Part shown: in pieces, positions 3,223 through 37,721 of the stretch | Layout: each line of letters opens with the position of its first letter | How positions within the stretch are numbered: position 1 is the stretch's first letter | Assembly (NCBI GenBank): GCA_049653105.1 | Contig: JBASFQ010000012.1 | Span: 50,356 to 114,355 of the forward strand | Length of the DNA: 64,000 nt | Origin: Alphaproteobacteria bacterium | Lineage (GTDB): Bacteria; Pseudomonadota; Alphaproteobacteria; UBA9219; RFNS01 | Reading direction: 5' to 3' | Program-made: the position numbers and the translations under genes | The notes under the pieces: model-generated | Database searches by the model: none | What the model was told of the DNA's origin: nothing | Seen by the model: only the letters and a program-made list of their open reading frames with translations

Positions 3223-4599
3223 ATGCGGTTATTGATCGTCGGCCAACTTGAAGGCTATATCACCGAAGCAGGCCGTATGGCCGTCGCGCGTGGCGCCAAG
3301 GTAGCGCATATCGACGATGTTGATGGTGCTCTGGGCGCATTGCGCGGCGGTCAAGGTGCCGATCTCGTGATGTGTGATATCAAGCGCGACATTGCCCGCC
3401 TGATCGAAAGCCTTAAGAGTGAGCGCATCATTGTTCCCGTGGTCGCCTGTGGTATCGGCACCGACGCCAATGCCGCTGTGCGTGCCATTCGCGCGGGCGC
3501 GAAAGAGTATGTTCCCCTACCCCCGGATGCCGACCTGATCGCTGCCGTTCTGGAAGCTGTCGCCGAGGAAAGCAATGCCATGATCGCGCGCGATCCTGTG
3601 ATGCGTCCGATCATCGAATTGGCAGAAAAAATTGCCCCCAGCGACGCCTCGGTGCTTATCACCGGTGAAAGCGGCACGGGCAAAGAGGTCATGGCGCGTT
3701 TTATCCACCGCAAGAGCAAACGCGCCGCGCAGAGTTTTGTTTCCCTGAACTGCGCCGCCATTCCGGAAAATCTGCTTGAATCCGAGCTATTCGGCCACGA
3801 AAAAGGGGCTTTTACCGGTGCGGTGGCGCGACGGATCGGCAAGTTCGAAGAAGCCAACGGCGGCACACTCTTGCTCGATGAAATCAGCGAAATGGATTTA
3901 CGGCTGCAAGCCAAGTTGTTGCGCGCCATTCAGGAACGTGAAATCGACCGCGTCGGCGGCACACAACCGGTCAAGGTTGATATCCGGCTTCTCGCCACAT
4001 CAAACCGCGATCTCGAAGCCGAAGTCAAAGCCAAGCGCTTTCGTGAGGATCTGTATTTCCGGCTCAATGTCGTCAGCCTTCCCTTACCTTCCTTGCGTAG
4101 CCGCCCGGCTGATATCTCGGCCTTGGCCGATCATTTTTCTCAGAAATACGCGCAAGCCAATGGATTGCCGCCGCGTCCTCTGGCGCCCGCCACGCTCCAG
4201 ATGCTCACGACGCATTATTGGCGTGGCAATGTCCGCGAGTTGGAAAACACCATGCATCGGGCCGTGCTACTGGCGCACGGCTCGGACATTGGCCCCGAAT
4301 CCATTGTCCTCACGGGACAAAGTTTTGCACCTGATTCCGGTGCGCCGACAGCCATAGCCGCGCAGATCTCGGGGCGCGCCCATGATCCGGCCCCCCCCAG
4401 TCAGCTGGTCGGTCGTACAGTGGCCGATGTTGAACGCGACCTTATCATCGATACGCTGGAACATACCTTGGGCAACCGCACACACGCGGCAAATATTCTT
4501 GGCATCTCGATCCGCACATTGCGGAACAAGCTCAAGCAGTATAACGAAGCCGGCGTAAATGTTCCTGCCGCCAGCGGTGAGGAGCGGATCGCCCAATGA
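3223..4599 (+). CDS. flbD: Sigma-54-dependent flagellar transcriptional activator FlbD
   Basis: 458 aa with an atypical N-terminal receiver domain, an AAA+ sigma-54 activator core (GESGTGKEV, GAFTGA) and a C-terminal HTH. The N-terminus closely resembles Caulobacter FlbD (MRLL.VG.L.G...). The stop overlaps the flhA start. Confidence 0.85.
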   Translation: MRLLIVGQLEGYITEAGRMAVARGAKVAHIDDVDGALGALRGGQGADLVMCDIKRDIARLIESLKSERIIVPVVACGIGTDANAAVRAIRAGAKEYVPLPPDADLIAAVLEAVAEESNAMIARDPVMRPIIELAEKIAPSDASVLITGESGTGKEVMARFIHRKSKRAAQSFVSLNCAAIPENLLESELFGHEKGAFTGAVARRIGKFEEANGGTLLLDEISEMDLRLQAKLLRAIQEREIDRVGGTQPVKVDIRLLATSNRDLEAEVKAKRFREDLYFRLNVVSLPLPSLRSRPADISALADHFSQKYAQANGLPPRPLAPATLQMLTTHYWRGNVRELENTMHRAVLLAHGSDIGPESIVLTGQSFAPDSGAPTAIAAQISGRAHDPAPPSQLVGRTVADVERDLIIDTLEHTLGNRTHAANILGISIRTLRNKLKQYNEAGVNVPAASGEERIAQ

Positions 4600-12922: not shown

Positions 12923-13185
12923 CTTTGATCCTTCACAAATTTATCCAGCCACCACACACGAATGTGCGGCATGGCAAGCGTCACCAACAAGTATCCCAGC
13001 ACCGGAACCAAGGACGGCACAAGCACGTCATGATGATCGACCAGACGCAAAACCAGCGCTGTACAGAAATACGTGACAATGGCAATCCAGCCGCGTTTAA
13101 CCCAGCTTACTTCCCACGCCACTTCGGCCGCGACTCGTGCATCGCGTTCCTCAATCGCGTCAATTCTTAATTGTAATTCCTGCAT
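12919..13185 (-). CDS. Small hypothetical membrane protein between pdhC and lpdA
   Basis: 88 aa with one predicted TM helix. It overlaps the start and stop of its neighbours (ATGA coupling), which suggests it is translated. Confidence 0.3.
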   Translation of the reverse strand: MQELQLRIDAIEERDARVAAEVAWEVSWVKRGWIAIVTYFCTALVLRLVDHHDVLVPSLVPVLGYLLVTLAMPHIRVWWLDKFVKDQR

Positions 13186-14477
13186 CAGATGACCAAGCTG
13201 TAGGGTTGCTCAATCAGGGTTTTAAAGGCTTGCAAAAATTCTGCGCCGACCGCGCCATCCACAGCGCGATGATCAACAGAAAGTGTACATGACATAACCG
13301 TACCGACAGCCAATTGTCCATCGCGTACAATTGGTCTTTGTTCCCCTGCTCCGACCGCAAGAATGCATGCCTGGGGCGGATTGATGATCGCCGCAAAATC
13401 CTTGACCCCGTACATGCCGAGGTTAGAAACCGTAAAACCACCCCCGAGGAATTCTTCAGGGCGCAGCTTTCCTTCGCGCGCGCGCGTGGCCAGATCTTTC
13501 ATCTGCTTAGAAATTTCGGCAATGGTTTTGGTGTCCGTGTTCTTGATAATCGGTGTAATCAACCCGTTCGGCGTCGCCACCGCGATGGAAACATCAACAC
13601 TTTTGTAAATCAAGATTGCATCATCCGTCCATGATGCATTCGCCGCAGGAACCTTTTTCATGCCCAGAGCTACGGCGCGGATGACAAAATCATTGACCGA
13701 AATCTTGACGCCGTCGAGCATGTTCATCTGCTTGCGTAAATCAAGCAGCTGATCAATCTGACAATCGATGGTCAGATAGAAATGCGGTACGGTCTGTTTG
13801 GATTCCGTCAAACGCTTGGCAATAACCTTGCGAACGGCACTGTTGGGGACGGCCTCATAAGCCATGCCGAGTTTGTCGGCAAGATCACGCGCATCAATCC
13901 CCGCAGGCATAGAACCACCGCGCTTTGATGCAGGCGATGTCCCGGCGCCTCCGCTTTCCTGAGCCGACGTAATATCGGCCTTGACGATACGTCCGCCGGG
14001 ACCGCTGCCCTGCACGCGCGACAGATCCACGCCGACCTGCTCCGCGACCCGACGCGCCAGCGGACTGGCCAAAATGCGTCCTCCTGCTGAAGCCCGCCCC
14101 GGAACCGCCGCCGCAAGCGGCGCAGCCAGCATTGGTGCAGGGATAGCCTTGGTTTCCTTGGGAGCTGTGGCCGCAGGGGCAACCTGTTTTGCCGTATCTT
14201 TTGCCGTGGGAACCGTAATGGCGGCAATATCCTCGCCGTCCTCAGCCAGAATGGCGATCAGGGCATTGACGGCCACCCCTTGTGTTCCGGCAGGAACCAA
14301 TATCTTTGCAATCTTCCCCTCGTCAACCGCTTCAACTTCCATCGTTGCCTTATCAGTCTCGATTTCGGCAATGACTTGACCGGATTTGACACTATCACCC
14401 TCCTTCTTTAACCAGCGGGCCAGATTGCCTTCGGTCATTGTCGGAGAAAGCGCGGGCATAAGAATGTTGATGGGCAT
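13185..14477 (-). CDS. pdhC: Pyruvate dehydrogenase complex dihydrolipoamide acetyltransferase (E2)
   Basis: 430 aa with an N-terminal lipoyl domain ([10 protein letters not shown]), an Ala/Pro-rich linker, a subunit-binding domain and a catalytic domain with the DHRxxDG motif (SVDHRAVDGA). Confidence 0.9.
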   Translation of the reverse strand: MPINILMPALSPTMTEGNLARWLKKEGDSVKSGQVIAEIETDKATMEVEAVDEGKIAKILVPAGTQGVAVNALIAILAEDGEDIAAITVPTAKDTAKQVAPAATAPKETKAIPAPMLAAPLAAAVPGRASAGGRILASPLARRVAEQVGVDLSRVQGSGPGGRIVKADITSAQESGGAGTSPASKRGGSMPAGIDARDLADKLGMAYEAVPNSAVRKVIAKRLTESKQTVPHFYLTIDCQIDQLLDLRKQMNMLDGVKISVNDFVIRAVALGMKKVPAANASWTDDAILIYKSVDVSIAVATPNGLITPIIKNTDTKTIAEISKQMKDLATRAREGKLRPEEFLGGGFTVSNLGMYGVKDFAAIINPPQACILAVGAGEQRPIVRDGQLAVGTVMSCTLSVDHRAVDGAVGAEFLQAFKTLIEQPYSLVI

Positions 14478-23753: not shown

Positions 23754-25700
23754 ATGTTACGAGCCATGCGCGGCGCTGCCCAGACGTGGGTAATCAAGCT
23801 GTTGTTAATATTTCTGATCATCTCGTTTGCGGTCTGGGGCGTTGGCGACATGTTCCGCGGCAATCCGCAACAGCGGGTCGTAGCGTGCATCGGCGGGTTC
23901 TACATACCTTTCAAGATTTTCTTCGGCTCGACCGGTTCAATCTGCACGGGGAAATCGATTACCGTGCAGAATCTTCTGGACGGATTTCAGCGCAATGTCG
24001 AGTTAGCCCGCAAAACCATGGGGCCAGATTTTACACCACAGGTCGCCCGGCAGATGGGCTATCTGGACAACACTCTGAGCGAACTCATCGCCTACATTTT
24101 ATATGAGCGCCCAGTTCAGGAGAGCGGGTTAAAATTCGACGATACGTTCATTCTACAAGAACTCACCAACGCACCATCATTGCGAACCAAAGACGGCAAG
24201 TTTGACGCCGAAGCGTTCCGCAATGCCGCCAGCAAGATGCGTATGACGGAACAAGAATTCCTTGATTATGCCCGTAAATCCTATGAGCGCGATCTGATCC
24301 TCGCGACAATGGCTGGTGCTGTCGAATTACCCAAGATCGTTACCGACGAAATTGTCGTCGCGCATGGCCAGGAACGTCATATTCAGGTTTTACGTCTCGC
24401 CCACGATACTTTAGACGTTCCAGCCAAACCAAACGATGAAGAACGCCGCAAATATCATGCCGATCACGGCGCACAATTTACCGCTCCCGAATATCGTAGC
24501 GTCAGCGTTCTTGAAATCCTATTCAACGATATCATGAAGAACACCGTTATTTCAGACGAAGAAATTGCTGCCGCGTTTGATAAGAGGCAGGAAGAATTTG
24601 CCCTTCCTGAACGACGCAGTCTGCTCCAGGTTATCCTGCACGACGAAGCCAAGGCCAACGCTGTTGCCGCCGAAGCCAAAAGTGGCAAAGACCTTAAAAA
24701 AATTGCCGCAGCACAGCGTTTAAACCCCATCAATCTGGAAGACCAAACAGAGCAGAACATCCTGCCATCCCTCTATACGAACGTTTTTACCGCCAGCACC
24801 GGCGCAATTATCGGACCGATTCATACCGATTATGGCTGGCACGTCATGCAACTCACGCAAATTAAACCGGCGACACAGCCGACTCTCGCCGATGTTAAAG
24901 ATGCCTTGCGCGCCAAGTTGCAACAGGAACGCGCCGCGGAAGACCTTCAGAATGTCGCAAACAAGGTCGACGATGACCTTGCCGGGGGGAAGAGTCTTGA
25001 GGAAATCGCCGAGGCCTACAAATTCAAGCTGACAAAACATCCGGCACTTGATGCTGCAGGTCTTACACAGGACGGCAAGAGTTCAGGTATCGCTCTACCT
25101 GACATAACACTCAAGAATGCTTTTGGCCTCAATGAAGGTGAGAGCAGCAGTTTGCTGGACGATCGCAGGGGCAATTATCTGGTTCTTCATGTTGACAAGA
25201 TTATAGCATCGCATGTGCGTGATCTGTCATCGGTGCAAGACCAGGTTGACGCTGCGTGGCGTGCGGATCAACAGACTCAGGCCGCCGCAGCCGAAGCAGC
25301 GAAGCTGGCTGATCTTTGGCGTCATGAACCTCATACCTATAATGACCTGCTTAAAAAGCGTGGGGTTAGTGCTGTCGCGACACATCCGGTCTCATTACTA
25401 TCCGGGTTTGACAAGGCATTGCCGCACACCATGCAAAAAGAGGTTTTTGCTCTCAAACTGGGCGAGGTTACCATCGGCGCTGATGCCGGCGCACACTACC
25501 TGGTTCGACTTTCTGAGTACAAGGCGTTGAAGACTGCCGAGAATGCTGAGGCACAAGATGCTTTGAAAAAACGAATGGCAAATGATTGGCGCACCGCCCT
25601 CATGGAGCAGTACGAAGCCTTGCTCCAGAAAGAAACGCCCCCCTATGTCAATAGAGCCATTATCGATGAGTTACGCCACACAGCATCACTCAACGATTAG
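23754..25700 (+). CDS. ppiD: Periplasmic folding chaperone/peptidyl-prolyl isomerase PpiD (SurA-N plus parvulin domains)
   Basis: 648 aa with an N-terminal signal-anchor TM and an internal parvulin-like segment (GPIHTDYGWHVMQL). Its position divergent from tpiA is typical. Confidence 0.7.
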   Translation: MLRAMRGAAQTWVIKLLLIFLIISFAVWGVGDMFRGNPQQRVVACIGGFYIPFKIFFGSTGSICTGKSITVQNLLDGFQRNVELARKTMGPDFTPQVARQMGYLDNTLSELIAYILYERPVQESGLKFDDTFILQELTNAPSLRTKDGKFDAEAFRNAASKMRMTEQEFLDYARKSYERDLILATMAGAVELPKIVTDEIVVAHGQERHIQVLRLAHDTLDVPAKPNDEERRKYHADHGAQFTAPEYRSVSVLEILFNDIMKNTVISDEEIAAAFDKRQEEFALPERRSLLQVILHDEAKANAVAAEAKSGKDLKKIAAAQRLNPINLEDQTEQNILPSLYTNVFTASTGAIIGPIHTDYGWHVMQLTQIKPATQPTLADVKDALRAKLQQERAAEDLQNVANKVDDDLAGGKSLEEIAEAYKFKLTKHPALDAAGLTQDGKSSGIALPDITLKNAFGLNEGESSSLLDDRRGNYLVLHVDKIIASHVRDLSSVQDQVDAAWRADQQTQAAAAEAAKLADLWRHEPHTYNDLLKKRGVSAVATHPVSLLSGFDKALPHTMQKEVFALKLGEVTIGADAGAHYLVRLSEYKALKTAENAEAQDALKKRMANDWRTALMEQYEALLQKETPPYVNRAIIDELRHTASLND

Positions 25701-26687
25701 GGACAACCCACGTTCCGGCAACAAGGATGTCAGCGGTACCAGCTTAAATCCGCGCGACTCCAGTTGCGCCAGCCATGAGCGCAACACCTCCAGAGTTACC
25801 GGATGCGGATGGCCGATAGCAATGGCCGAATTCCGTTCGACCGCGACGGCCTCAAGCCGTGCCAGTTCGCGCCGCACATCAGCCTCCGTGACCACATCGT
25901 CCAGAAATATGTCGCGTCCCAAAACGGGAATACCCTGCGTATGCGCCATGGCGAGAGCTTGTGACTGCGACGTTGTTTTTGAATCAAGAAAAAACACTTC
26001 ATGCTTCTTAATCTCCTGCATAACAGGAAGAAGTCGGTTTTCATCCGCCGTAAACTTGCTTCCCATGTGATTATTGACGCCAACAGCACCGGGCACAGCG
26101 ATGAAGGCGCGCTGCACCCGCATCACCAATTCATCATCCGACAAGTCCGTCGTCAGCGCCTCTGGCCCCGGATGTTCCCGTCCGACGGGTTGCATCGGGA
26201 GGTGGAGCAAAATCTCATGCCCACGCTCTTTGGCAGCCTGTGCTTGCGCCGCAACGCCTTTCCCATAAGGCAGAAATGACAGGGCGACTTCTGGCGGCAG
26301 AGCAATCGCTGCACGTGTCGCCGCCGCATTCAACCCCAGATCGTCGATCACGACCGCGATGCGCGGATGTTCTCCGGGATGAATTGCGCTGCGCTGTTCC
26401 ATTTCCTGCGGTGACGGTACGACCGGCATCGACGACAGAACTTCGGGCACGAGGGTTGATTCTATCGGAACTGATTGTGGCAGAGCTTCGTCACGGCGCG
26501 TGATCTCTAGCGTCACCTCAGGTTGAACAGCTGTTTCAACCGCCCGAGATACTTCCACCGGTTCGCGTTGTGGCAATGAAGGCGAACGTTGCGCCAGATT
26601 GGAAGGAAAGAACCAGTAAAATAAAAAAGCGATAAATAACAAAACAGCATATGGCCCGACATTGAAACCATTCGGCAGTTTAAACAT
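25686..26687 (-). CDS. Divergent polysaccharide deacetylase family protein (YibQ-like)
   Basis: 333 aa with an N-terminal TM. The C-terminal domain carries the motifs VVIDDLG, VNNHMGS and FLDSKTT characteristic of YibQ/divergent 4-helix polysaccharide deacetylases. Confidence 0.7.
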   Translation of the reverse strand: MFKLPNGFNVGPYAVLLFIAFLFYWFFPSNLAQRSPSLPQREPVEVSRAVETAVQPEVTLEITRRDEALPQSVPIESTLVPEVLSSMPVVPSPQEMEQRSAIHPGEHPRIAVVIDDLGLNAAATRAAIALPPEVALSFLPYGKGVAAQAQAAKERGHEILLHLPMQPVGREHPGPEALTTDLSDDELVMRVQRAFIAVPGAVGVNNHMGSKFTADENRLLPVMQEIKKHEVFFLDSKTTSQSQALAMAHTQGIPVLGRDIFLDDVVTEADVRRELARLEAVAVERNSAIAIGHPHPVTLEVLRSWLAQLESRGFKLVPLTSLLPERGLSLIVE

Positions 26688-28872
26688 GCGGCCGCCACCA
26701 TTTAAGAGTCATGGCCATGCAGATGACCGCCAAACTGCTGAGTCCCATGCCCAACGCCGCCATATGCGGCGGCACACGCCCGATAATCGCCAGAGGCAAG
26801 GCAATGGCGTTAAAAACAATTGCCCAGCAGATATTCACAAACATAAGGCCGTGCGCCATCTTCGCAAGGCTGAGTAATGCAGGCACGAGCCGCAAATCAT
26901 CGCGCAACAGACGTACCGGAGAAGCGGCATCAGCCGCAGCGACACCATTGCACATGGCAATCCCCAGATCAGCCGCCGCTAAAGCCGGAGCATCATTCAT
27001 GCCATCGCCAACCATGGCAATGACCTCGCCCCATTTCTGGCGTTTCTGAATTTCCTGAATCTTGTCCTGCGGCAACGCCTCGCCGTTCGATTGCCCGATA
27101 CCCAGCCGTTTGGCAACGGAGAGCGTATTATGTTTGTTATCTCCGCTCAGCACCGCCAGCATATAATGGCCTTGTTGCAAGCGCCCTATAGCATCCTGCG
27201 CCTCAGGACGCACAGAGTCGCGGAATGCCATAACCCCCAGCAATGCAGGCAAGGGCGTCAACTCCGCCAGCCATACCAACGCCCGGCCTCTTTCTTCCCA
27301 GGCAGCCGCCGTCACGGCGGCGTCATCCAAAGGCACCTTGTGCTGATCCATAAATTGGAGATTGCCGCATATCAGCTTGCGTCCGTCCTGCATCGTCCCC
27401 AGAACCCCGCGGCCATGTACGATCTCCGCAGGGCTTTGCAAAACCGGCATCGACGTCGGCGCAATCTTACCGGACGCGATCGTACGCAACGCCTCCGCCA
27501 GAGGGTGGTTGACATGCTGGTTAAGCGCGGCGGCCTCGGCCAGAACCTGATCACCCGAAAAAGAACCGAGCGCCAAGGTTTCTGCCAATTCCGGCCTGCC
27601 CAGTGACAATGTCCCGGTTTTGTCAAAGATGACCGTCGTGATCGACGCCGCACGCTCCAAAGTTGCCGCATCGCGGATCAGAATACCATAACGCGCCGCC
27701 TGGCCTATCGCCACCGTGATGACGATCGGCACGGCCAACCCCAAAGCACAGGGACACGCCATCAGCAAGACCGACAAGGCCGTTTGCAGCCCCATATCGA
27801 TATCGTCGCGGAGAAAGCTCCATAATCCCAACGCGCCAATGGCACAGATGATCACGGCAAAAATGAAGTATCCGGCAATCGTATCCGTCATGCGTTGAAT
27901 CGGCGCACGCGAGGCTTGTGCCACAGCCACCATATCCGCCAGGCGGTCGAGCATTGTCTGCCCGACCAGAGTCGTGACATTCATGGCGACATTGCCGCCA
28001 AGGCACAAGGCTCCGGCAATCACGGAGTCTCCGGCCCCCAGCACACGCGGCGCCGCCTCGCCGGTAATCAGGGAAAAATCAAAAGACCCTTGTCCACCAA
28101 CCAGTTCCCCATCAAGCGGCACGCGTTCCCCCGTCCATACCGCCAGCGTATCCCCCACCTTGACCTCGGCCAGGGCAACCATATTTTCGCGCCCGCCGGT
28201 TTCGATGCGCCGCACCTGTTGGGGCTGTAATGTAATAAGGTGATGAACCGCCGCGATGGACTGACGCCGCACACGTCCCTCCAGCCACTGGCCGAACATC
28301 AAGAACAGAATCACCAGCGCCGAAGCCTCAAACAGCAGCTCGCCCTGCCCATGAACAACGCGCCATGCGCTGACGCCATAAGCAACACTGGAACCGAATG
28401 CCGCCAGAACATCCATATTCAGATTCTGGTTTTTTAAGGCGTGTGCCGCGCCATAATAAAATTTCCAACCGCCCCAAAATTGTACAATAGAGGCCAGCGC
28501 CAACAAGAGCCAGGGCGCGACGATTGCGTCCAGAACCTCCTTGCCCATGAACATTGGCAGCAGCAAGGGGAGCGACAAAAACCCGCATATAAAAATCTTT
28601 AGCAACCCAGAATCGCTCTCCGAAGCCCCAGCACCGCCCCACATACCGGCCCTATACCCGGCCTGAGCAACGGCGGCGATGAGATCCCGCTGCGCGACCA
28701 TCCCCTCGGTAAAATCTATATCAACACGCCCGGTTACCAGATTGACCGCCGTTTTACTGACACCAGGAACCTGCATGAGCGTTTGCTCGATGCGGGTAAC
28801 ACAGGCCGCACAATGCATACCGGTGACCGCCAGAACCAGATGTCGTACCGGTGCCGATTTAATATTTGTCAT
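26680..28872 (-). CDS. copA: Copper-translocating P1B-type ATPase
   Basis: 730 aa with an N-terminal HMA domain (GMHCAACV), a CPC ion-transduction motif (ACPCALGLA), the phosphorylation site DKTGTLS, and GDGMNDAPAL. Confidence 0.88.
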   Translation of the reverse strand: MTNIKSAPVRHLVLAVTGMHCAACVTRIEQTLMQVPGVSKTAVNLVTGRVDIDFTEGMVAQRDLIAAVAQAGYRAGMWGGAGASESDSGLLKIFICGFLSLPLLLPMFMGKEVLDAIVAPWLLLALASIVQFWGGWKFYYGAAHALKNQNLNMDVLAAFGSSVAYGVSAWRVVHGQGELLFEASALVILFLMFGQWLEGRVRRQSIAAVHHLITLQPQQVRRIETGGRENMVALAEVKVGDTLAVWTGERVPLDGELVGGQGSFDFSLITGEAAPRVLGAGDSVIAGALCLGGNVAMNVTTLVGQTMLDRLADMVAVAQASRAPIQRMTDTIAGYFIFAVIICAIGALGLWSFLRDDIDMGLQTALSVLLMACPCALGLAVPIVITVAIGQAARYGILIRDAATLERAASITTVIFDKTGTLSLGRPELAETLALGSFSGDQVLAEAAALNQHVNHPLAEALRTIASGKIAPTSMPVLQSPAEIVHGRGVLGTMQDGRKLICGNLQFMDQHKVPLDDAAVTAAAWEERGRALVWLAELTPLPALLGVMAFRDSVRPEAQDAIGRLQQGHYMLAVLSGDNKHNTLSVAKRLGIGQSNGEALPQDKIQEIQKRQKWGEVIAMVGDGMNDAPALAAADLGIAMCNGVAAADAASPVRLLRDDLRLVPALLSLAKMAHGLMFVNICWAIVFNAIALPLAIIGRVPPHMAALGMGLSSLAVICMAMTLKWWRPHV

Positions 28873-30757: not shown

Positions 30758-30796
30758 AACTTGACAGTGAGAATGATTTACTTGAATTAGGATGCC

Positions 30797-31213
30797 ATGA
30801 AATCAGTGTATGCTGTTTCTTGGCGTTGTTTGCGCCCTCGACACAAGCTGCAATTACACGCTTGCATGTCCTGGCTTCTTATAGCGGCAATGCTTGTGCG
30901 CGGTCTGGTCCCTGTTGGCTTTATGCCTGACATGGACGGAATTGGCGTGATGGCAATCCGGATTTGCAGCAGCGCCGGACTGCAGACCATTTACATTAAA
31001 ACATCTCCCGAAGAACGCCCTGTCACCGCTGCACAACATAACCAATGTGCGCTTTGCGCTGCGCCTGTGTTGTCTGGAGCGGTGACACAAGAAGCCCTGG
31101 CCACTTTTATTGGTTTCCTTATTCTCGCGACGATTGCGGCGGGATGGATACTCCTGACGCACCGACGTTTCTATGTGATCGCATCGCCGCGCGCGCCCCC
31201 TTCTGTCTCATGA
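30797..31213 (+). CDS. DUF2946-like small membrane protein (putative Cu-associated; HxxCxxC motif)
   Basis: 138 aa with an N-terminal TM (WLLIAAMLVRGLV), GFMPDMDG, IRICS and HNQCALCAA motifs, and a C-terminal TM. It is the first gene of the AT-richer islet. Confidence 0.35.
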   Translation: MKSVYAVSWRCLRPRHKLQLHACMSWLLIAAMLVRGLVPVGFMPDMDGIGVMAIRICSSAGLQTIYIKTSPEERPVTAAQHNQCALCAAPVLSGAVTQEALATFIGFLILATIAAGWILLTHRRFYVIASPRAPPSVS

Positions 31214-31307
31214 ATGAATCTCAATAAACTCGCGCATACTGAGCTGATGTAGCGGCCTTTTGTTGGCTGTGTTCAGTGTGCGTCATCATCATTCAATGGA
31301 GACAGCT

Positions 31308-31523
31308 ATGAAAAACAACACGTCGTTTAAGATTGTCGGTGCGGCTCTTACAACTGCCGGAATCCTTGCATTAACCGACCCTGCTCCCGCTTTAGCTTGG
31401 GGGCATTCTGCAGCCGATACAACACGGAATATCGGCTTCCTTGCAGGTGGTGTACTCGCCGCCCGCGCACTCCAGCGTAAAGTCTGCGCTAAATATGCAG
31501 CTCCGAAAAATAAGCTGGGCTAA
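31308..31523 (+). CDS. Small secreted hypothetical protein
   Basis: The start was chosen at MKNNTSFKIVGAALTTAGILALTDPAPALA, a signal peptide with an AxA site. The mature part is about 40 aa. The ORF as drawn could start at 31260. Confidence 0.3.
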   Translation: MKNNTSFKIVGAALTTAGILALTDPAPALAWGHSAADTTRNIGFLAGGVLAARALQRKVCAKYAAPKNKLG

Positions 31524-31534
31524 TTAGCTTCAAT

Positions 31535-32473
31535 GTGTGCAACGCGGCGTTAGCAACGCTTCGTTGCACCGTTTGGCTTTTTTTCACCATGCTTATCCAT
31601 GCCAACGACTTGCGCTCCAAGTTCCGAACTGCGGGGACATGGCTTCCCAGCCATCCCAGTCCGGAATCGGCAGCTCGTATCATCACCTGTGGCTTTTCTC
31701 AGCTCCAAAGGATAGGCGGCGGGGCGCAAATTAATATGTGGCATCCCAAACACGTTGGAACCGACGCAACAAAACCTATTCCCTTGCAATGGGTTGCTAT
31801 CAGGCAAGTCGAGATTCTTTTTGAAGGCAGCCACATCGAATTATTCAATATGGAAATGGAAAACTTCAAGCGCAGCCTGAGATCATTTTGCGCTTGCCGT
31901 GCAGGTGGCCAGCGCCTGGCAATTGTAGTCGGTGGAATTTACCAAGGCACGAAAGCATCACAAGATCGCCTTGCCTTCTTCGATGCAACCTTACGAGATC
32001 GCCTGCATGATATCGTCAACATACTTTGGTTGGATGAATTCTCTGAAACTTTCACGGGGCGTGCCGCCGGCAACACTGGATCCGATATTACAAAGCTTTT
32101 GCCTTATGTCGGCACAGCACTCGGCGCCAGACAGTTGTTCCAAAAAAAGACATCAGCACCGTCTTCCTTCACGAATACGCACGACATGGCATTGAATTTT
32201 ATTTCCGCCGTCGATGCCATGCCGCGATCATGCGCCAAAGAATACAGCGTGCTTGTCGGTTTAAAGATTCCAACCCATCGTCCTGACAACGATATTGATT
32301 GGGTCACACCTCATGAATTTCAACGCCTGCCATTCATGCAAGCACTTCATTCAGTCTTCAACACTTTTGGAATGGACACACCGACAACGCATCACCCGCG
32401 TGGACACGGCGATCATATGAATTATCAAAAACGCGCCGATCCAGCTCACTTTCTTAGGATCGCGCCATGCTAG
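31535..32473 (+). CDS. Hypothetical protein, His/Cys-containing, no recognisable family
   Basis: 312 aa; an alternative start at 31589 (MLIHAN) is possible. It is AT-rich relative to flanking genes. The C-terminus has a His cluster (TTHHPRGHGDHMNY) and there is an internal CAC pair. No TM, P-loop or known catalytic motif was seen. Confidence 0.4.
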   Translation: MCNAALATLRCTVWLFFTMLIHANDLRSKFRTAGTWLPSHPSPESAARIITCGFSQLQRIGGGAQINMWHPKHVGTDATKPIPLQWVAIRQVEILFEGSHIELFNMEMENFKRSLRSFCACRAGGQRLAIVVGGIYQGTKASQDRLAFFDATLRDRLHDIVNILWLDEFSETFTGRAAGNTGSDITKLLPYVGTALGARQLFQKKTSAPSSFTNTHDMALNFISAVDAMPRSCAKEYSVLVGLKIPTHRPDNDIDWVTPHEFQRLPFMQALHSVFNTFGMDTPTTHHPRGHGDHMNYQKRADPAHFLRIAPC

Positions 32474-32850
32474 ATCGCAAACCTCCGCCATTTTATCAAA
32501 TACATATTTTTATCTGTACGCATGAAGTTTCCGATCACCGCTGCTGCGGTCGCCGCAACAGCCACACGCTGTTCAAATATGCACGAAGCCGCGTGTGTGA
32601 ACTCAAACTTACCGGTGCATGCGTCACCCAAACGGGGTGCCTCGGAAGATGTATGAGCGGTCCGTCTCTGGTCATCTATCCCGACAATATTTGGTATAGC
32701 CCGCACTCCCAGGCCGATATCGATGCGATACTCATCAACCATGTGGGCACGAAAACGCTCGTTGAGAACCTTTTAATGCCAAACACAGACCTTCCTGTAC
32801 CCGGCTATGACGTGGCTGCGGCAGAAGAGAATGAGGTTGGCGATGTATAA
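32467..32850 (+). CDS. Thioredoxin-like [2Fe-2S] ferredoxin family protein
   Basis: 127 aa. The four-Cys pattern of the thioredoxin-fold 2Fe-2S ferredoxins is present (HIFICTH...C...GCLGRCMSGPSLVIYPDNIWY). The start overlaps the stop of the upstream ORF. Confidence 0.55.
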   Translation: MLDRKPPPFYQIHIFICTHEVSDHRCCGRRNSHTLFKYARSRVCELKLTGACVTQTGCLGRCMSGPSLVIYPDNIWYSPHSQADIDAILINHVGTKTLVENLLMPNTDLPVPGYDVAAAEENEVGDV

Positions 32851-33313
32851 AAAATGGCGCTTTGCAGCACGGGAAATCATGCTTAGTGCTGTAGCAGCAA
32901 CCGCCATCTATGGCGTCTCCAGCCCTGTCGTGCATTGGTACGCAGAGCAGCCGAAACACGACGGGCAGGTTGGAACGATTGAACAGAATCATATTGAACT
33001 GGTTGCGCGACCGGATCAGATCGTTGTTTATGTCACTGACCATGAAGGAACGCCTTCGGAATCGAGGGGTTACGCCATCCGCGCCACCATCGATGCTGAT
33101 GCCCCGCGCCGTATGTTTCCTACAGAAAATATTAACGGAAGATTTGAGTTGAGGGAAAGTTTCCCTCTCCAGCCGAATACGCGCATTGTGATAGACGTCG
33201 AACGCGATTGCGTTCCCGCAGGGGCAGTAGTCTTCAGACCATCCCCTTCGAACGTAATCACGCCAAAAACTGTGGCTTACACCCCAGCGCCTCAACCATG
33301 CTCAGCGCACTAA
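32843..33313 (+). CDS. Hypothetical periplasmic protein
   Basis: Start chosen at MYKKWRF..., giving an N-terminal hydrophobic signal/anchor (AVAATAIYGVSSP). The rest is a beta-rich soluble domain. Overlaps the upstream ORF by 8 nt. No family recognised. Confidence 0.35.
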   Translation: MYKKWRFAAREIMLSAVAATAIYGVSSPVVHWYAEQPKHDGQVGTIEQNHIELVARPDQIVVYVTDHEGTPSESRGYAIRATIDADAPRRMFPTENINGRFELRESFPLQPNTRIVIDVERDCVPAGAVVFRPSPSNVITPKTVAYTPAPQPCSAH

Positions 33314-33346
33314 CCTTGCTCTCATGGCGTGGCGCGCAAGCAATAT

Positions 33347-34255
33347 TCAGTCTTTATTATCGAGTTCTGCAAACTGCCACTGAACTTCGGGGTAGAGCGT
33401 TTTTACTTTTTCTTCAAAGTCATTCACTCGGCGGATCATCGTCTGTGTATCCGGATTATGAGCGCCCGGATTGATTTTGTAAGCCAGCATGACCGCATCC
33501 ACGCCCTGTTGCAAAGCAACGAATCTGATGAAACGTCCGCCGGGTATAGCTTCCTGCAAAACCCGCTCCAATTCGGGGCGGTAATCATGCGACGGCATTT
33601 CACCAATCAGAAGTGATTTGACTTCACGTGCCAGGATAAAGGCTACCGCAACCAACAACACACCGATCAGAAGAGAGCCAAACCCGTCCCAGAACGTGTC
33701 CCCGGTGATCCATGTCAAAAGCAATGCCATGAACGCCAGTATCAACCCCAGCAAGGCCGCAAGATCTTCAAGGAAAATCACCAATAAATCCGAACTCGTC
33801 GTTTTACGTACCCACTGCCACAGCGAGCCAAAACGATTTTGCACCTTAACCTCGACATAACATTTCCAGAAAGAAAATGTTTCCAGGCCTATGGCGATCA
33901 ATAAAATCACGATCCCAACCCATGGGCTACTCACGGAGCCGGGGTGGGATATTTTATGCCAGCCTTCATAAATGCTGAACATTCCTCCCATTGAGAAGAG
34001 GAGAAGAGCGACCACGAACGACCAAAAGAAGGCTTCTTTTCCAAGTCCAAGGGGATGCAACGGTGTCGGAGGCTTTTTTGCCGCACTTTGTCCATAAAGC
34101 AGGAGAGCCTGATTGCCGCAGTCAGAGAGACTGTGTACCGCCTCTGCCATCAACGAGGCGCTGCCTGTCAAAATCGCACCCCCGAATTTAGACGCCGCAA
34201 TGCCCATGTTTGCCATAAGCGATATAATAATAACTTTCCTTGAACCACCAGACAT
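33347..34255 (-). CDS. Cation diffusion facilitator (CDF) family metal efflux transporter
   Basis: Six TM helices with the motif HSLSDCGNQALLLYG and a C-terminal cytoplasmic domain. The ORF as drawn starts at a TTG (34264); the first ATG (MSGGSRK) is at 34255, 5 nt after the pntB stop. Confidence 0.85.
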   Translation of the reverse strand: MSGGSRKVIIISLMANMGIAASKFGGAILTGSASLMAEAVHSLSDCGNQALLLYGQSAAKKPPTPLHPLGLGKEAFFWSFVVALLLFSMGGMFSIYEGWHKISHPGSVSSPWVGIVILLIAIGLETFSFWKCYVEVKVQNRFGSLWQWVRKTTSSDLLVIFLEDLAALLGLILAFMALLLTWITGDTFWDGFGSLLIGVLLVAVAFILAREVKSLLIGEMPSHDYRPELERVLQEAIPGGRFIRFVALQQGVDAVMLAYKINPGAHNPDTQTMIRRVNDFEEKVKTLYPEVQWQFAELDNKD

Positions 34256-34260
34256 AACGC

Positions 34261-35664
34261 TCAATGCTCCATTGTCTTGACAATTTCCTCACACACCTTT
34301 TTCGCGTCACCAAAAAGCATCATGGTATTATCACGATAGAATAATTCATTCTCCACACCGGCATAGCCAGATGCCATCGACCGCTTGATGAACAGGACTG
34401 TCTTGGCTTTCTCGACATCCAGCACGGGCATGCCGTAAATCGGTGACTTCGGATCGGTCTTTGCCGCCGGGTTGGTCACGTCATTCGCGCCAATAACAAA
34501 AGCCACATCGGCGCGCGCAAAATCACGATTGATTTCTTCAAGTTCCAGAACCTCGTCATAAGGCACATTGGCTTCTGCCAACAGCACATTCATGTGCCCC
34601 GGCATGCGCCCGGCGACCGGATGAATAGCATAACGCACCTCGACGCCGGCCTTCTTGAGTTGATCGGCCATTTCGCGCAAAGCGTGCTGCGCCTGCGCCA
34701 CAGCCATTCCGTAACCTGGGACGATAATAACACTGGATGCGTTCTTGAGAATAAAAGAGGCATCTTCTGCCGACCCTGTTTTAACCGTGCGATCGCCGGC
34801 CACGCTCGCGCCGGACGCTGCGGCACTGTCGCCACCAAAGCCGCCCAAAATCACATTCAGGATCGACCGGTTCATACCTTTACACATGATATAGCTGAGG
34901 ATTGCTCCCGACGAACCGACCAAGGCTCCCGTGATGATGAGCAAGCTGTTCTGCAAAGTGAAACCGATGCCTGCTGCTGCCCAACCGGAATAACTGTTCA
35001 GCATCGAGATCACGACCGGCATATCCGCGCCACCAATCGGCAGTATCAAGAGAAAGCCGAGTGCCAGCGTCACCAGAATAATCAGGAAGAACACAAATCC
35101 CGACTGGCTCATGCATAATATGGCGATCAGGAGCAGGGCGAATAATCCCAAAGCCAGGTTCAATTGATGCTGCAGGGGAAAGGCCAACGGCTTACCGGAA
35201 ACCAGGCCTTGCAGTTTGGCAAATGCCACTACCGACCCGGTGAAGGTTATCGCCCCAATGGCCGCCCCCAGTCCCATTTCGATCAGACTGCCGACAAAAA
35301 TCTGCCCGCCTCCAGCACCAATGCCAAAATCATCAGGCGCAAGAAATGCGGCCGAGGCAACGAGAACCGCCGCCAGCCCCACCAGAGAATGGAACCCAGC
35401 AACCAATTGCGGCAACGCCGTCATTTTAATCTTTTGCGCGATATACGCGCCGATGCCACCACCAAACGCAATGCCGACAATAATGACGAACCATGACTGG
35501 AACGCGACCGCAGGCGACAGCATGGTCGTGACAATCGCCAACGCCATACCGGCAGCGCCAAACATATTGCCCTGACGTGCCGTGACAGGGGACGCCAGGC
35601 CACGCAGAGCCATAATGAAGCAGATGGCCGAAACAAGGTAAGCAAAGGCGGCAATGCCGGACAT
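34261..35664 (-). CDS. pntB: NAD(P) transhydrogenase subunit beta
   Basis: 467 aa with a polytopic N-terminal membrane domain and a C-terminal NADP(H)-binding dIII domain ([22 protein letters not shown]). Confidence 0.93.
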
Positions 35665-35678
35665 GGACTAAGCTCCCG

Positions 35679-36098
35679 CTATTTGGATTTTTTTCTGTAC
35701 ATATGTAACATCCGCTGCGTCACAATGAACCCACCGAAGATATTGATTGAGGCCAGAATAACGGCAATTAACCCCAGCCAGCTTGAGGCCGTGATTTCCT
35801 CTGCCCCCGTCGCCAGCAAGGCTCCGACGATAATCACCGAAGAGACGGCATTCGTGACCGCCATCAAGGGCGAGTGCAGAGCCGGCGTCACCCGCCAGAC
35901 AACATAATAGCCGACGAAGCAGGCCAGGACAAAAACCGTCAGACCAAAAATAAAAAAATCCTGATGCCCGCCTGCATGACTGGCCGCCTGTGCTACCAGC
36001 TCGTGCGATTGCCCGGCCAGCACCTTCGCGAATTTAGCCAGCTGTTCCTGCTCTTCGGCCAGTTTCTGGATATTACCCGCAAAATTTTCTACGCTCAT
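35679..36098 (-). CDS. pntAB: NAD(P) transhydrogenase alpha subunit part 2 (membrane dII segment)
   Basis: 139 aa with four TM helices. This is the typical split alpha-2 subunit of alphaproteobacteria. Confidence 0.85.
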
Positions 36099-36126: not shown

Positions 36127-36561
36127 TCACGGTTTCACCGGAGCCACGATAGGTGTTGCGTTGTGTATTCCAATCGGTTCGTCCGGGTTGAATTCGTGGG
36201 GCATATTCGATGGCGCAGAAGGAGCTGCCGCGGGTTCGTTGCCAACCATTGGCACGGCCACTAACGGAACCGATTCAGCCCCTGGCGCTTGCATTTGCAC
36301 CTGCACCGGCGCTGGTGGCGTTGGTGCGGCGTGAAGACCGCCGGCCTTCTGCCGCCGGTGTTCCCACATGATGTGGCTCTCCAGATGGTTCAGGCGCGCT
36401 TCCAACATGCCGGATTCTACCCGTGCCACAGTAACTTCTTTGTGCAAGTCCAAAAAGTTTCCGGAAAAAACCAGAAAAAAGCCCGCACAACAGACAATCG
36501 TAATCGCCAGGCTTGTGATCCACTGGTGCAGGCGCTCTTTGTTGTTGGCATTGGATAACAT
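36127..36561 (-). CDS. Hypothetical membrane-anchored protein inserted between pntAA and pntAB
   Basis: 144 aa with an N-terminal TM ([18 protein letters not shown]), a short coiled coil and a Pro/Ala-rich C-terminus. Intergenic gaps are 20 and 28 nt. Confidence 0.4.
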
Positions 36562-36581: not shown

Positions 36582-37721
36582 TCAGATGAATTGCGGATGC
36601 ACGACAGCGCCCGCATGGGTCAGCAACATGGCCTTGATGATCTCATCCTCGGGATTCAGTTTGAAGTCTCCGCTCTCCTTATCGTGATAGAAAGCGATGA
36701 GATTATAGATATTACGCGCATACAATGCCGAAGCATCGACGGCAATTCGGCTGGGTATATTGCGGTAACCAACAATCTTGACCCCACCAATATCAACAAT
36801 CTCCCCGGGTTTGCTGCACGCGCAGTTGCCGCCCTGTTCAACCGCCATATCGACAATCACAGATCCCGGTTTCATGCTGCGTACCATGGTCTCGGAGAGC
36901 AATTGTGGCGCAGGACGCCCCGGAATAAGCGCTGTGCAGATGACAATGTCCTGTTTTTTGACTGTCTCAGCGATCAACACGGCCTGTCTCTGCTTAAAGT
37001 CATCACTCATTTCCTTGGCATAGCCACCTGATGTTTCAGCATTTATTGTCTCGTCACTTTCCACCATAACGAAAGTCGCGCCCAGACTTTGGACCTGCTC
37101 TTTCGCCGCCATACGCACATCCGTAGCAGAAACCACCGCGCCAAGCCGCCGCGCCGTCGCGATGGCCTGTAATCCCGCTACCCCTGCTCCCATCACCATG
37201 ACTCGTGTCGGAGGTATTGTCCCCGCCGCCGTCATCATCATTGGAAATGCGCGCCCGAATTCCGTCGCTGCATCGAGAACGGCTCGATACCCGGCCAGAT
37301 TGGCTTGCGACGACAAGACATCCATGCTTTGTGCCCGCGTGATGCGCGGAACCAGTTCCATGGCCAGTGCACTCACCTGACGCGAGGCAAAAAGCGGTAA
37401 TTCCGCGCGCGCACTATGCGGACTAAACATCGCAATCACCGTCGCGCCGGGTTTAAGCATGGCGACTTCGTCCGTCCCCTCAGCCGCCGTCATCGGCCGC
37501 TGCACCTTCAGAACCAGATCGGCATCTCCGGCAGCCGTGGCGGCATCACGGAGATGTGCCCCCGCGTCACGATAGGCCTGATCGACATAGGAGGATTCCA
37601 CTCCGGCGCCGGATTCCACGGCGACCTGATGCCCAAGAGCAATCAGCTTCTTCACCGTCTCCGGCGTTGCCGCAACGCGGCGTTCAAACGGCCGACGTTC
37701 CTTGAGTACTGCAATTTTCAT
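36582..37721 (-). CDS. pntAA: NAD(P) transhydrogenase alpha subunit part 1 (dI, NAD(H)-binding)
   Basis: 379 aa with alanine-dehydrogenase/PNT N- and C-domains and a Rossmann motif (VMVMGAGVAGLQA). Confidence 0.9.
   Translation of the reverse strand: MKIAVLKERRPFERRVAATPETVKKLIALGHQVAVESGAGVESSYVDQAYRDAGAHLRDAATAAGDADLVLKVQRPMTAAEGTDEVAMLKPGATVIAMFSPHSARAELPLFASRQVSALAMELVPRITRAQSMDVLSSQANLAGYRAVLDAATEFGRAFPMMMTAAGTIPPTRVMVMGAGVAGLQAIATARRLGAVVSATDVRMAAKEQVQSLGATFVMVESDETINAETSGGYAKEMSDDFKQRQAVLIAETVKKQDIVICTALIPGRPAPQLLSETMVRSMKPGSVIVDMAVEQGGNCACSKPGEIVDIGGVKIVGYRNIPSRIAVDASALYARNIYNLIAFYHDKESGDFKLNPEDEIIKAMLLTHAGAVVHPQFI

Follow-up and report, generated by a model that had tools for sequence, protein, structure and literature searches.

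A CruR-headed five-gene operon between trpC and pntB of an uncultured alphaproteobacterium: a probable copper acquisition or buffering system with undescribed cargo

Gene content of the trpC-pntB region

The region described here lies in a 64,000-nucleotide (nt) stretch of DNA (hereafter the window) from a contig of an uncultured 'Alphaproteobacteria bacterium' metagenome-assembled genome (MAG; GenBank assembly GCA_049653105.1, contig JBASFQ010000012.1, positions 50,356 to 114,355 of the forward strand). Six genes separate the stop codon of trpC (30757) from that of pntB (34261). Five of these lie on the plus strand (30797-33313) and recur elsewhere in conserved order: cruR, which encodes a putative copper-sensing leader peptide, then genes for a peptide of 71-81 amino acids (aa), a protein of 282-301 aa, a ferredoxin and, usually, a further protein designated p5. 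This five-gene operon under a CruR-type leader is probably a vertically inherited copper acquisition or buffering system with undescribed cargo, a reading which is favoured here with some reserve. The carriers found so far are without exception metagenome contigs or MAGs, and belong to a single small clade. The features in the window are as follows.

30797..31213, plus strand: cruR-like gene, 138 aa, DUF2946; putative copper-sensing leader or arrest peptide (Pfam match and motifs)
31203..31305, plus strand: predicted mRNA hairpin (folding and conservation)
31308..31523, plus strand: 71-aa precursor of a small exported membrane peptide (alignments A5 and A7)
31589..32473, plus strand: 294-aa cytoplasmic protein of an undescribed family (alignment)
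32467..32850, plus strand: thioredoxin-like [2Fe-2S] ferredoxin, 127 aa (profile match to 1F37)
32843..33313, plus strand: p5, 156 aa (NCBI start), with an N-terminal membrane anchor and a periplasmic domain (alignment A4)
33347..34264, minus strand: cation diffusion facilitator (CDF)-family cation exporter, outside the operon (PF01545, TIGR01297)

NCBI also calls six proteins (MGB4101224-229), in agreement with the original prediction for this DNA. That prediction named a DUF2946-like HxxCxxC protein, a thioredoxin-like [2Fe-2S] ferredoxin and a CDF metal exporter; all three are borne out by the profile matches given below, and the H-x-x-C-x-x-C motif is present. Other details are revised. 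The plus-strand genes number five rather than four, the protein given as 312 aa has 294 and starts at 31589, and the '40-aa secreted peptide' is really a 71-aa precursor, of which 41 aa follow the predicted signal-peptidase cut. The genes were said to be tightly packed or overlapping. This is true of two junctions, where the 294-aa gene overlaps the ferredoxin gene by 7 nt and the latter overlaps p5 by 8 nt; the remaining gaps are 39 nt before cruR, 94 nt after it and 65 nt after the peptide gene. The proposed grouping of the plus-strand genes in one operon is supported by their conserved order across loci.

Two further possibilities were considered and rejected. One was an antisense open reading frame (ORF) produced by crude ORF calling (32735-33295), where the conserved frames are those of the plus-strand ferredoxin and p5 genes. 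The other was that the small ORFs are spurious; all five genes keep their order, length and motifs across at least eight lineages.

The cruR leader and its hairpin

Leader peptides of the CruR and CutF type, discovered only recently, enable bacteria to detect copper outside the cytoplasm. In Bordetella pertussis, cruR is an upstream ORF, the nascent product of which arrests the ribosome on a C-terminal RAPP; copper sensed by its CxxC relieves the arrest, and Rho-dependent termination then silences the downstream copper-uptake genes (PMC9426467). The strongest arrest cores are RAPP and RGPP, and in vitro the ribosome arrested on CruR has the two Pro codons in its P and A sites (PMC12992588; PMC10951233). 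The CruR-headed operons described so far (bfrG, oprC, pcuABCDE) are copper-repressed acquisition systems. In Rhodobacter capsulatus, copper binding causes CutF to stall, upon which the ribosome opens a stem-loop that hides the cutO ribosome-binding site (RBS) (PMC9973294; bioRxiv 10.1101/2025.02.05.636593).

Members of the CruR family are recognised by a CxxC motif, a RAPP motif, a spacing of about 45 residues between the two (which varies by just 1-2 residues across the family), an N-terminal export signal or Nin-Cout transmembrane segment, and the first position in an operon, before a long intergenic region (PMC9426467). The product of the window gene matches Pfam PF11162 with 26.2 bits (gathering cut-off 23.7) over profile positions 2-117 of 117, and is named 'DUF2946 family protein' by NCBI. 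It has a basic N-terminus, followed by a hydrophobic segment, W26-LLIAAMLVRGLVPVGF, read from the sequence as a putative export segment. The CxxC is C84-A-L-C87 (nt 31046-31057); a second hydrophobic segment separates it from R132-A-P-P135 (nt 31190-31201), which is followed by S-V-S and the stop codon. CxLCAAP (six sequences aligned) and PR(A/G)PP are invariant among the homologues, which use RAPP or RGPP as their C-terminal core. The distance from the CxxC to R(A/G)PP is exactly 44 residues in all eight CxxC-bearing homologues (45 in Bp2923, the B. pertussis CruR), and R(A/G)PP stands exactly three residues from the end in nine of nine compared sequences and also in the L102 homologue (PRGPPLSS). 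In one distant member (L018) the CxxC is replaced by H-x-x-C. In every locus cruR heads five co-oriented genes; the intergenic region after it is 94 nt in the window and 50-98 nt elsewhere, and the last ~80 nt of the gene are C-rich and G-poor in seven loci. By these motifs and its position, the first gene is a putative CruR/DUF2946 copper-sensing arrest peptide, i.e. a new member of a known family at the head of undescribed cargo. A metal-related module of uncharacterised composition had been proposed for this region and is supported, with copper as the probable metal; the first gene fits the CruR/CutF family.

The end of cruR is predicted to form an mRNA hairpin with the region in front of the peptide gene. 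Its 5' arm (31203-31217) consists of the last cruR sense codons, the UGA stop and 4 nt beyond; its 3' arm (31289-31305) includes the Shine-Dalgarno (SD) sequence of the peptide gene, GGAG (31298-31301). The surrounding 161 nt (31170-31330) fold with a minimum free energy of -49.2 kcal/mol (z = -2.5). Pairing of the SD with the cruR end is predicted in ten of ten distinct loci (the nine first examined and L102), with a pairing probability of ~1 in eight of those nine, and the duplex energy of the two arms is in each locus better than that of 968-1000 of 1000 shuffles. The sequence CTC(C/A)TGAA is invariant at the nucleotide level, including synonymous sites, despite a variable penultimate residue (V, Y, F or I) and the six codons available for Ser. 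Compensatory changes are found at positions -5 and +4 relative to the stop. A scan against Rfam matched no family at the locus.

When the P site holds the first Pro codon (31196-31198), bases 31203-31210 fall at +8 to +15 and, judging from published toeprint positions, would be inside the mRNA channel of the arrested ribosome. As the anti-SD would lie in this channel, a ribosome stalled on RAPP would unmask the RBS. An anti-SD placed in the three codons that separate RAPP from the stop may also explain why RAPP is found exactly three residues from the end in this family. The hairpin suggests a physical link between the CruR and CutF models; the switch combines features of both, and masking of an SD by the leader's own last codons would be a new variant of known switches.

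The likeness to the CruR (Bp2923)-bfrG-bp2921 operon of B. pertussis (Roy et al., mBio 2022, PMC9426467) includes the DUF2946 first gene with a (here putative) export signal, the CxxC, the RAPP three residues before the stop, the spacing (45 there, 44 here), the long intergenic region and the C>G-rich 3' end of cruR, which is the rut region in B. pertussis. However, that intergenic region is 162 nt rather than 50-98 nt. The cargo in B. pertussis is a TonB-dependent transporter and PepSY, whereas the four families found here are off the published list of CruR-linked Pfam families. The B. pertussis model has Rho termination only, whereas here an anti-SD is present in the last cruR codons. The CutF-cutO-cutG system (Ozturk et al., mBio 2023, PMC9973294) shares a nascent peptide of the DUF2946 family and an SD-masking stem-loop opened by a stall near the leader end. 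CutF differs in having C41xxxC45 and PEPEGPPPRL (PPP), where the window family has CxxC and RAPP/RGPP, in its dependence on elongation factor P (EF-P) and in being switched on by copper. Its anti-SD is in an intergenic stem-loop rather than in the final sense codons and stop, and its cargo is a multicopper oxidase rather than proteins of undescribed function. SecM-secA and the RAPP peptides ApdA and ApdP (PMC10951233, PMC7897499) likewise have an R-A-P-P/R-A-G-P core which stalls the ribosome and remodels the downstream mRNA for the next cistron. These peptides monitor protein export and are released by translocon pulling, whereas the window leader has what is, by motif, a metal-binding CxxC and heads an operon of metal type.

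Taken together, 30797-33313 would be a single operon, controlled post-transcriptionally by its first gene. The CruR-type nascent peptide would be exported during synthesis, its CxxC sensing copper while the ribosome is arrested on RAPP. Arrest would expose the RBS and switch the cargo on, probably blocking Rho as well; upon release the hairpin would re-form and the cargo would be off. The stem-loop which shields an RBS in CutF/cutO, and is opened there by a stalled ribosome, lends support to such a switch. Because all of the protein hallmarks are CruR-like and the known CruR-headed operons are copper-repressed, copper would probably relieve the arrest, so that the operon would be expressed at low copper.

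Scans for promoters and terminators gave sites at chance level only. The gap between cruR and the gene before it (trpC, but a hexapeptide-transferase gene in L001) is only 33-57 nt, and nothing resembling a promoter or terminator is seen there (30758-30796 in the window; L001, L004-L006, L012 and L013). The operon may depend on read-through transcription, with control being wholly post-transcriptional.

The cargo proteins

Catalogued CruR/CutF operons carry recognisable copper genes, encoding TonB-dependent transporters, PepSY, PCu(A)C, Sco, CopC/YcnI or MbnPH. In the window, the same switch would drive cargo which is invisible to domain-based surveys: three of the four families have no Pfam entry, and the ferredoxin falls below every curated cut-off. 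The three other cargo families each have only 10-16 clusters among 5.8 billion proteins.

The 71-aa precursor begins with a signal peptide (31308-31397) of n-h-c layout which ends in A-L-A. The predicted mature N-terminus is W-G-H, with the His (H33) at 31404-31406. A-x-A followed by (W/F/A)(G/S)H is found in 16 of 16 family peptides, in which A28, A30, H33 and N41 do not vary. Conservation is otherwise confined to a few Gly and Arg, and the peptide has no conserved Cys. A free N-terminus of the form H2N-X-X-His, without Pro at position 2, defines the amino-terminal Cu(II)- and Ni(II)-binding (ATCUN) site, which binds Cu(II) with high affinity in the 4N mode. The cleaved peptide is thus predicted to carry an ATCUN-type X-X-His Cu(II) site, and would be a rare bacterial case of such a site generated by signal peptidase. 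After the X-X-His the sequence continues with a short hydrophobic helix rich in Gly and a basic tail, and ends in a conserved ..LG ((T/K)LG); the peptide is read as a single-pass membrane protein with about 11 periplasmic residues. The family comprises 16 clusters in 5.8e9 proteins, and Pfam has no family for it.

The 294-aa protein has no signal sequence. Its operon-linked subfamily shares the invariant motifs PSPESA, TCG, EGxHxELF, DNDIDW and a C-terminal THHPRGHGDHM, which suggest metal binding. Pfam scans of the protein and 30 relatives gave noise only, and a profile search of the Protein Data Bank (PDB) sequences found no match for the family. An AlphaFold2 model reached a mean predicted local distance difference test score (pLDDT) of 75.8 and a predicted template modelling score (pTM) of 0.76. 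An alignment of the nine close homologues alone had given a pLDDT of 32.5, and the good model needed 22 distant representatives to be added. Comparison of the model with PDB folds yielded no credible neighbour. Only ten relatives are present among 5.8 billion clustered proteins, and a profile search of 1.84 billion representatives returned no more than 42.

Relatives of the 294-aa protein also occur outside the operon. In L019 (6001-7109; GCA_039808825.1, the same MAG as L005), a 35%-identical paralogue is followed by a gene for an 86-aa Bfd-like [2Fe-2S] protein, the start codon of which overlaps the paralogue stop; there is no cruR or peptide gene nearby. The 294-aa family has thus been paired with a [2Fe-2S] protein twice, independently (the ferredoxin and the Bfd-like protein). 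In L017 (1-4240), a 30%-identical relative lies between a 570-aa ORF truncated at the end of the contig and a tadA-like deaminase gene, beyond which is a SecD/SecF-family gene; the locus has neither ferredoxin nor cruR.

The ferredoxin aligns over residues 11-109 with Aquifex aeolicus Fd4 (1F37/1M2A; E = 5e-22). C17, C26/27, C58 and C62 are invariant and coincide with the cluster-ligand Cys. Scores are below curated cut-offs for PF01257 (13 against 24.8 bits), NF041613 (50 against 195) and NF041612 (46 against 150), and the protein represents a divergent subfamily rather than an equivalog. The Fd4-type group, which includes [2Fe-2S] ferredoxins of Azotobacter and Clostridium, has the same four ligands and is homologous over its full length. 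Unlike these, the window ferredoxin has an extra Cys (a CC pair), a C-terminal LMPxxEPPLPGY extension and a partner from an undescribed protein family.

The periplasmic part of p5 has four invariant His (H43, H51, H62, H79) as well as invariant E64, D78 and C135 (numbered on the 168-aa ORF from 32807). Only 13 related proteins are found in 5.8e9; scans of all members gave no Pfam family, and there is no match among PDB sequences. Assignment of p5 to PCu(A)C, Sco, CopC, CusF or Cox11 was considered and rejected; their signature motifs are absent and no profile matches.

A copper role is also supported by gene context at other loci. In L102 (9642-14146; GCA_021733565.1) the five-gene module is convergent with an abutting gene of the PCu(A)C family (PF04314, H-x-M motif). 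In L007/L008 (1550-9175) it lies beside a crp/fnr-like regulator, ompW, a hemN-like radical-SAM gene and ccoN/ccoO, and in L001 it follows a hexapeptide-transferase gene, 3 kb from ctaA and with a redoxin nearby (3379-4389, 13077-13625). The neighbours in L007/L008 and L001 hint at a link with haem-copper oxidase biogenesis. In the favoured acquisition or buffering system, the membrane-anchored peptide would capture periplasmic Cu(II) at the inner membrane through its ATCUN site, and p5 would be a likely partner for copper hand-off or storage. The translationally coupled 294-aa/ferredoxin pair can be guessed to supply electrons or to carry out a metal-dependent enzyme step. The system would probably supply or buffer copper for cuproenzymes of the envelope, for example haem-copper oxidases. 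A more specific proposal, offered tentatively and as a possibility of limited weight, is that the cargo forms a copper-handling machine of an undescribed kind. In it, the ATCUN peptide and its His-rich partner would be coupled across the membrane to the 294-aa/ferredoxin pair, all under a CruR-type switch with the anti-SD in its own last codons; the pair could act as an electron source, or could chemically modify the peptide ahead of its export, in which case this would be a new class of ribosomally made copper-binding peptide.

The polarity could be reversed. In a copper-induced detoxification or buffering system of the CutF kind, copper binding would cause the arrest and open the hairpin, and the peptide and p5 would take up surplus Cu(II) in the periplasm. 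This role suits an isolated ATCUN site, which binds Cu(II) tightly as a redox-inert sink, and genes for a Cu-ATPase and the CDF exporter adjoin. However, the motifs are of the CruR type (CxxC, RAPP, spacing of 44) rather than the CutF type (CxxxC, PPP, longer spacing), the described CruR-headed operons are copper-repressed, and the neighbours at other loci are oxidase-biogenesis genes rather than resistance genes. Reversed polarity is considered rather doubtful.

It is quite unlikely that the peptide is itself the substrate of its neighbours. If so, it would resemble a ribosomally synthesised and post-translationally modified peptide (RiPP): the 294-aa protein, with electrons from the ferredoxin, would modify the precursor in the cytoplasm before Sec export to give a modified copper-binding peptide analogous to the bufferins. 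The gene arrangement invites this view, with a small signal-peptide-bearing peptide right upstream of an enzyme-sized protein which is translationally coupled to a redox partner; so do the conserved, cytoplasm-facing ..(T/K)LG terminus and the copper-type control of the operon. On the other hand, neither a conserved Cys nor any other obvious core for modification is seen in the peptide, no family of RiPP enzymes (or any Pfam family) matches the 294-aa protein, and relatives of that protein occur without any such peptide. Bufferin (BufA/MNIO) systems and pcuABCDE of Bradyrhizobium resemble the window operon in having Sec-exported periplasmic copper-binding products and copper-linked operons, and pcuABCDE is likewise headed by a cruR homologue. 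Unlike them, the window operon lacks any MNIO/DUF692, DUF2063, PCu(A)C, Sco or TonB-dependent component, and its peptide is without conserved Cys.

A copper-sparing back-up is very improbable. Here the ferredoxin and 294-aa protein would replace a copper-enzyme activity at copper starvation, the envelope proteins being accessory. In its favour are the induction at low copper which CruR-type control predicts and the two independent pairings of the 294-aa family with a [2Fe-2S] protein. However, no catalytic family can be assigned, and the ATCUN-type and His-rich envelope proteins are conserved as strictly as the cytoplasmic pair.

Several points weigh against a copper acquisition or buffering system in the form favoured here. 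That copper is bound, that the ribosome arrests and in which direction copper acts on the operon are inferences, and cleavage of the signal peptide is predicted from the A-x-A (-3/-1) rule only. Most pairs of the hairpin, including those of the UGA stop and the GGAG, are invariant, and covariation support is therefore limited to two or three positions. The wider 294-aa family has no universally conserved His or Cys and is found in unrelated contexts (L017, L020, L021); the copper link of this protein may be specific to the subfamily. Finally, Cu(II) in a lone ATCUN site is bound very tightly and resists reduction, which fits buffering better than delivery.

Conservation, origin and neighbouring genes

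The operon is found immediately after trpC in all seven distinct relatives in which TrpC is 63-79% identical to that of the window. Where the contig is long enough, it also faces the pnt operon and has copA upstream. Identities in these relatives are 80-91% for PntB, 52-67% for the 294-aa protein, 48-57% for the ferredoxin, 33-46% for p5 and 31-58% for CruR; that of the 294-aa protein is 67% where TrpC is 79% identical and 52-54% where TrpC is 63-67% identical. GC content at third codon positions (GC3) of the operon follows the host, being ~0.66-0.80 in L005 and L006 (60%-GC genomes) and 0.63-0.71 in L002/L004 (56-58% GC). Among 80 metagenomic loci with TrpC 49-59% identical, none has the operon or pnt within 6 kb, which makes the module specific to the clade.

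The composition of the region is distinct within the window. GC content taken over 2 kb reaches its lowest value anywhere in the window between 31 and 34 kb, with 0.503-0.510 (window average ~0.545). GC3 is 0.518 in cruR, 0.444 in the peptide gene, 0.502 in the 294-aa gene, 0.531 in the ferredoxin gene, 0.503 in p5 and 0.542 in the CDF gene, compared to 0.605 +/- 0.039 for the crude ORF set of the window. The share of A/T-ending codons (AT3) is 0.458-0.556 in the six genes and reaches at most 0.450 in 34 long background genes. The original prediction of lower GC and a different codon flavour is therefore upheld, and so are two of the three codons which it gave as frequent: AAA makes up 0.71 of Lys codons in the six genes (0.49 in the background) and TTA 0.11 of Leu codons (0.06), whereas ATT is not raised among Ile codons (0.45 against 0.42). 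The dip is real but modest.

This dip had led to the proposal of a horizontally acquired metal-handling module. In this view, the six genes would be a recently acquired islet which forms a single metal-resistance module with copA. All six genes do exceed 34 of 34 long background genes in AT3. The operon is present in at least four different genomic contexts overall, and in L102 the module lies next to mnmA, with genes for a NikA-like protein and a large serine recombinase at a distance of 2-3 kb; this locus may be an integrative element carrying the cassette, and ancient transfer is plausible. However, it should be noted that a clear compositional dip is not the same as recent horizontal transfer. 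The prediction itself held that the same gene set at this position in all close relatives would make it core rather than acquired, and the same five genes are right after trpC in seven of seven. Given this shared slot, the divergence of the operon in step with its flanks, GC3 which tracks each host genome and the absence of mobility genes, the operon is vertically inherited in this lineage, with no recent import. The window has no mobility genes or flanking repeats, as had been stated (the repeat search gave short chance matches only). The AT-richer codons reflect a fast-evolving, probably weakly expressed accessory operon. Nor do the six genes and copA make up a single system: the CDF gene, which is encoded on the opposite strand and adjoins pntB, is lacking at most loci with the module, and copA is divergent and beyond trpD-trpC. 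A recently acquired islet of this kind is improbable.

The CDF gene is supported by PF01545 (133 bits against 26.6) and TIGR01297 (118 against 82). All equivalog models score far below cut-off, so that its metal specificity cannot be assigned. As it starts at the pntB stop (34261-34263), it is taken to be the final gene of the pnt unit on the minus strand. Apart from the window, only the closest relative (L002-L004) has it; L005, L006 and L010 have other, unrelated genes in the slot.

The slot between p5 and pntB is variable (window 33314-34264; L005 7020-8003; L006 9419-10801; L010 2772-5909), and outside the window and L002-L004 it is occupied by genes without a Pfam family. In L010 two slot genes have a GC content of 0.44-0.47 against a background of 0.54, and look like a more recent insertion than the operon itself. 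Within the pnt operon, a 144-aa membrane-anchored Pro-rich ORF of no family (36127-36561, minus strand) lies between pntAA (36582-37721) and pntAB (35679-36098). ORFs of 157, 162 and 183 aa, also without Pfam families, occupy the same position in L002, L005 and L010, which points to a conserved gene of undescribed function within the transhydrogenase operon.

On the other side of trpD-trpC, copA (26680-28872, minus strand) encodes a product with GMHCAAC and CPC motifs. Downstream of it, with an 8-nt overlap, is a gene for a 333-aa protein (25686-26687, minus strand). The pairing is kept in L006, where the gene at the same place beside copA matches PF04748 (divergent polysaccharide deacetylase).

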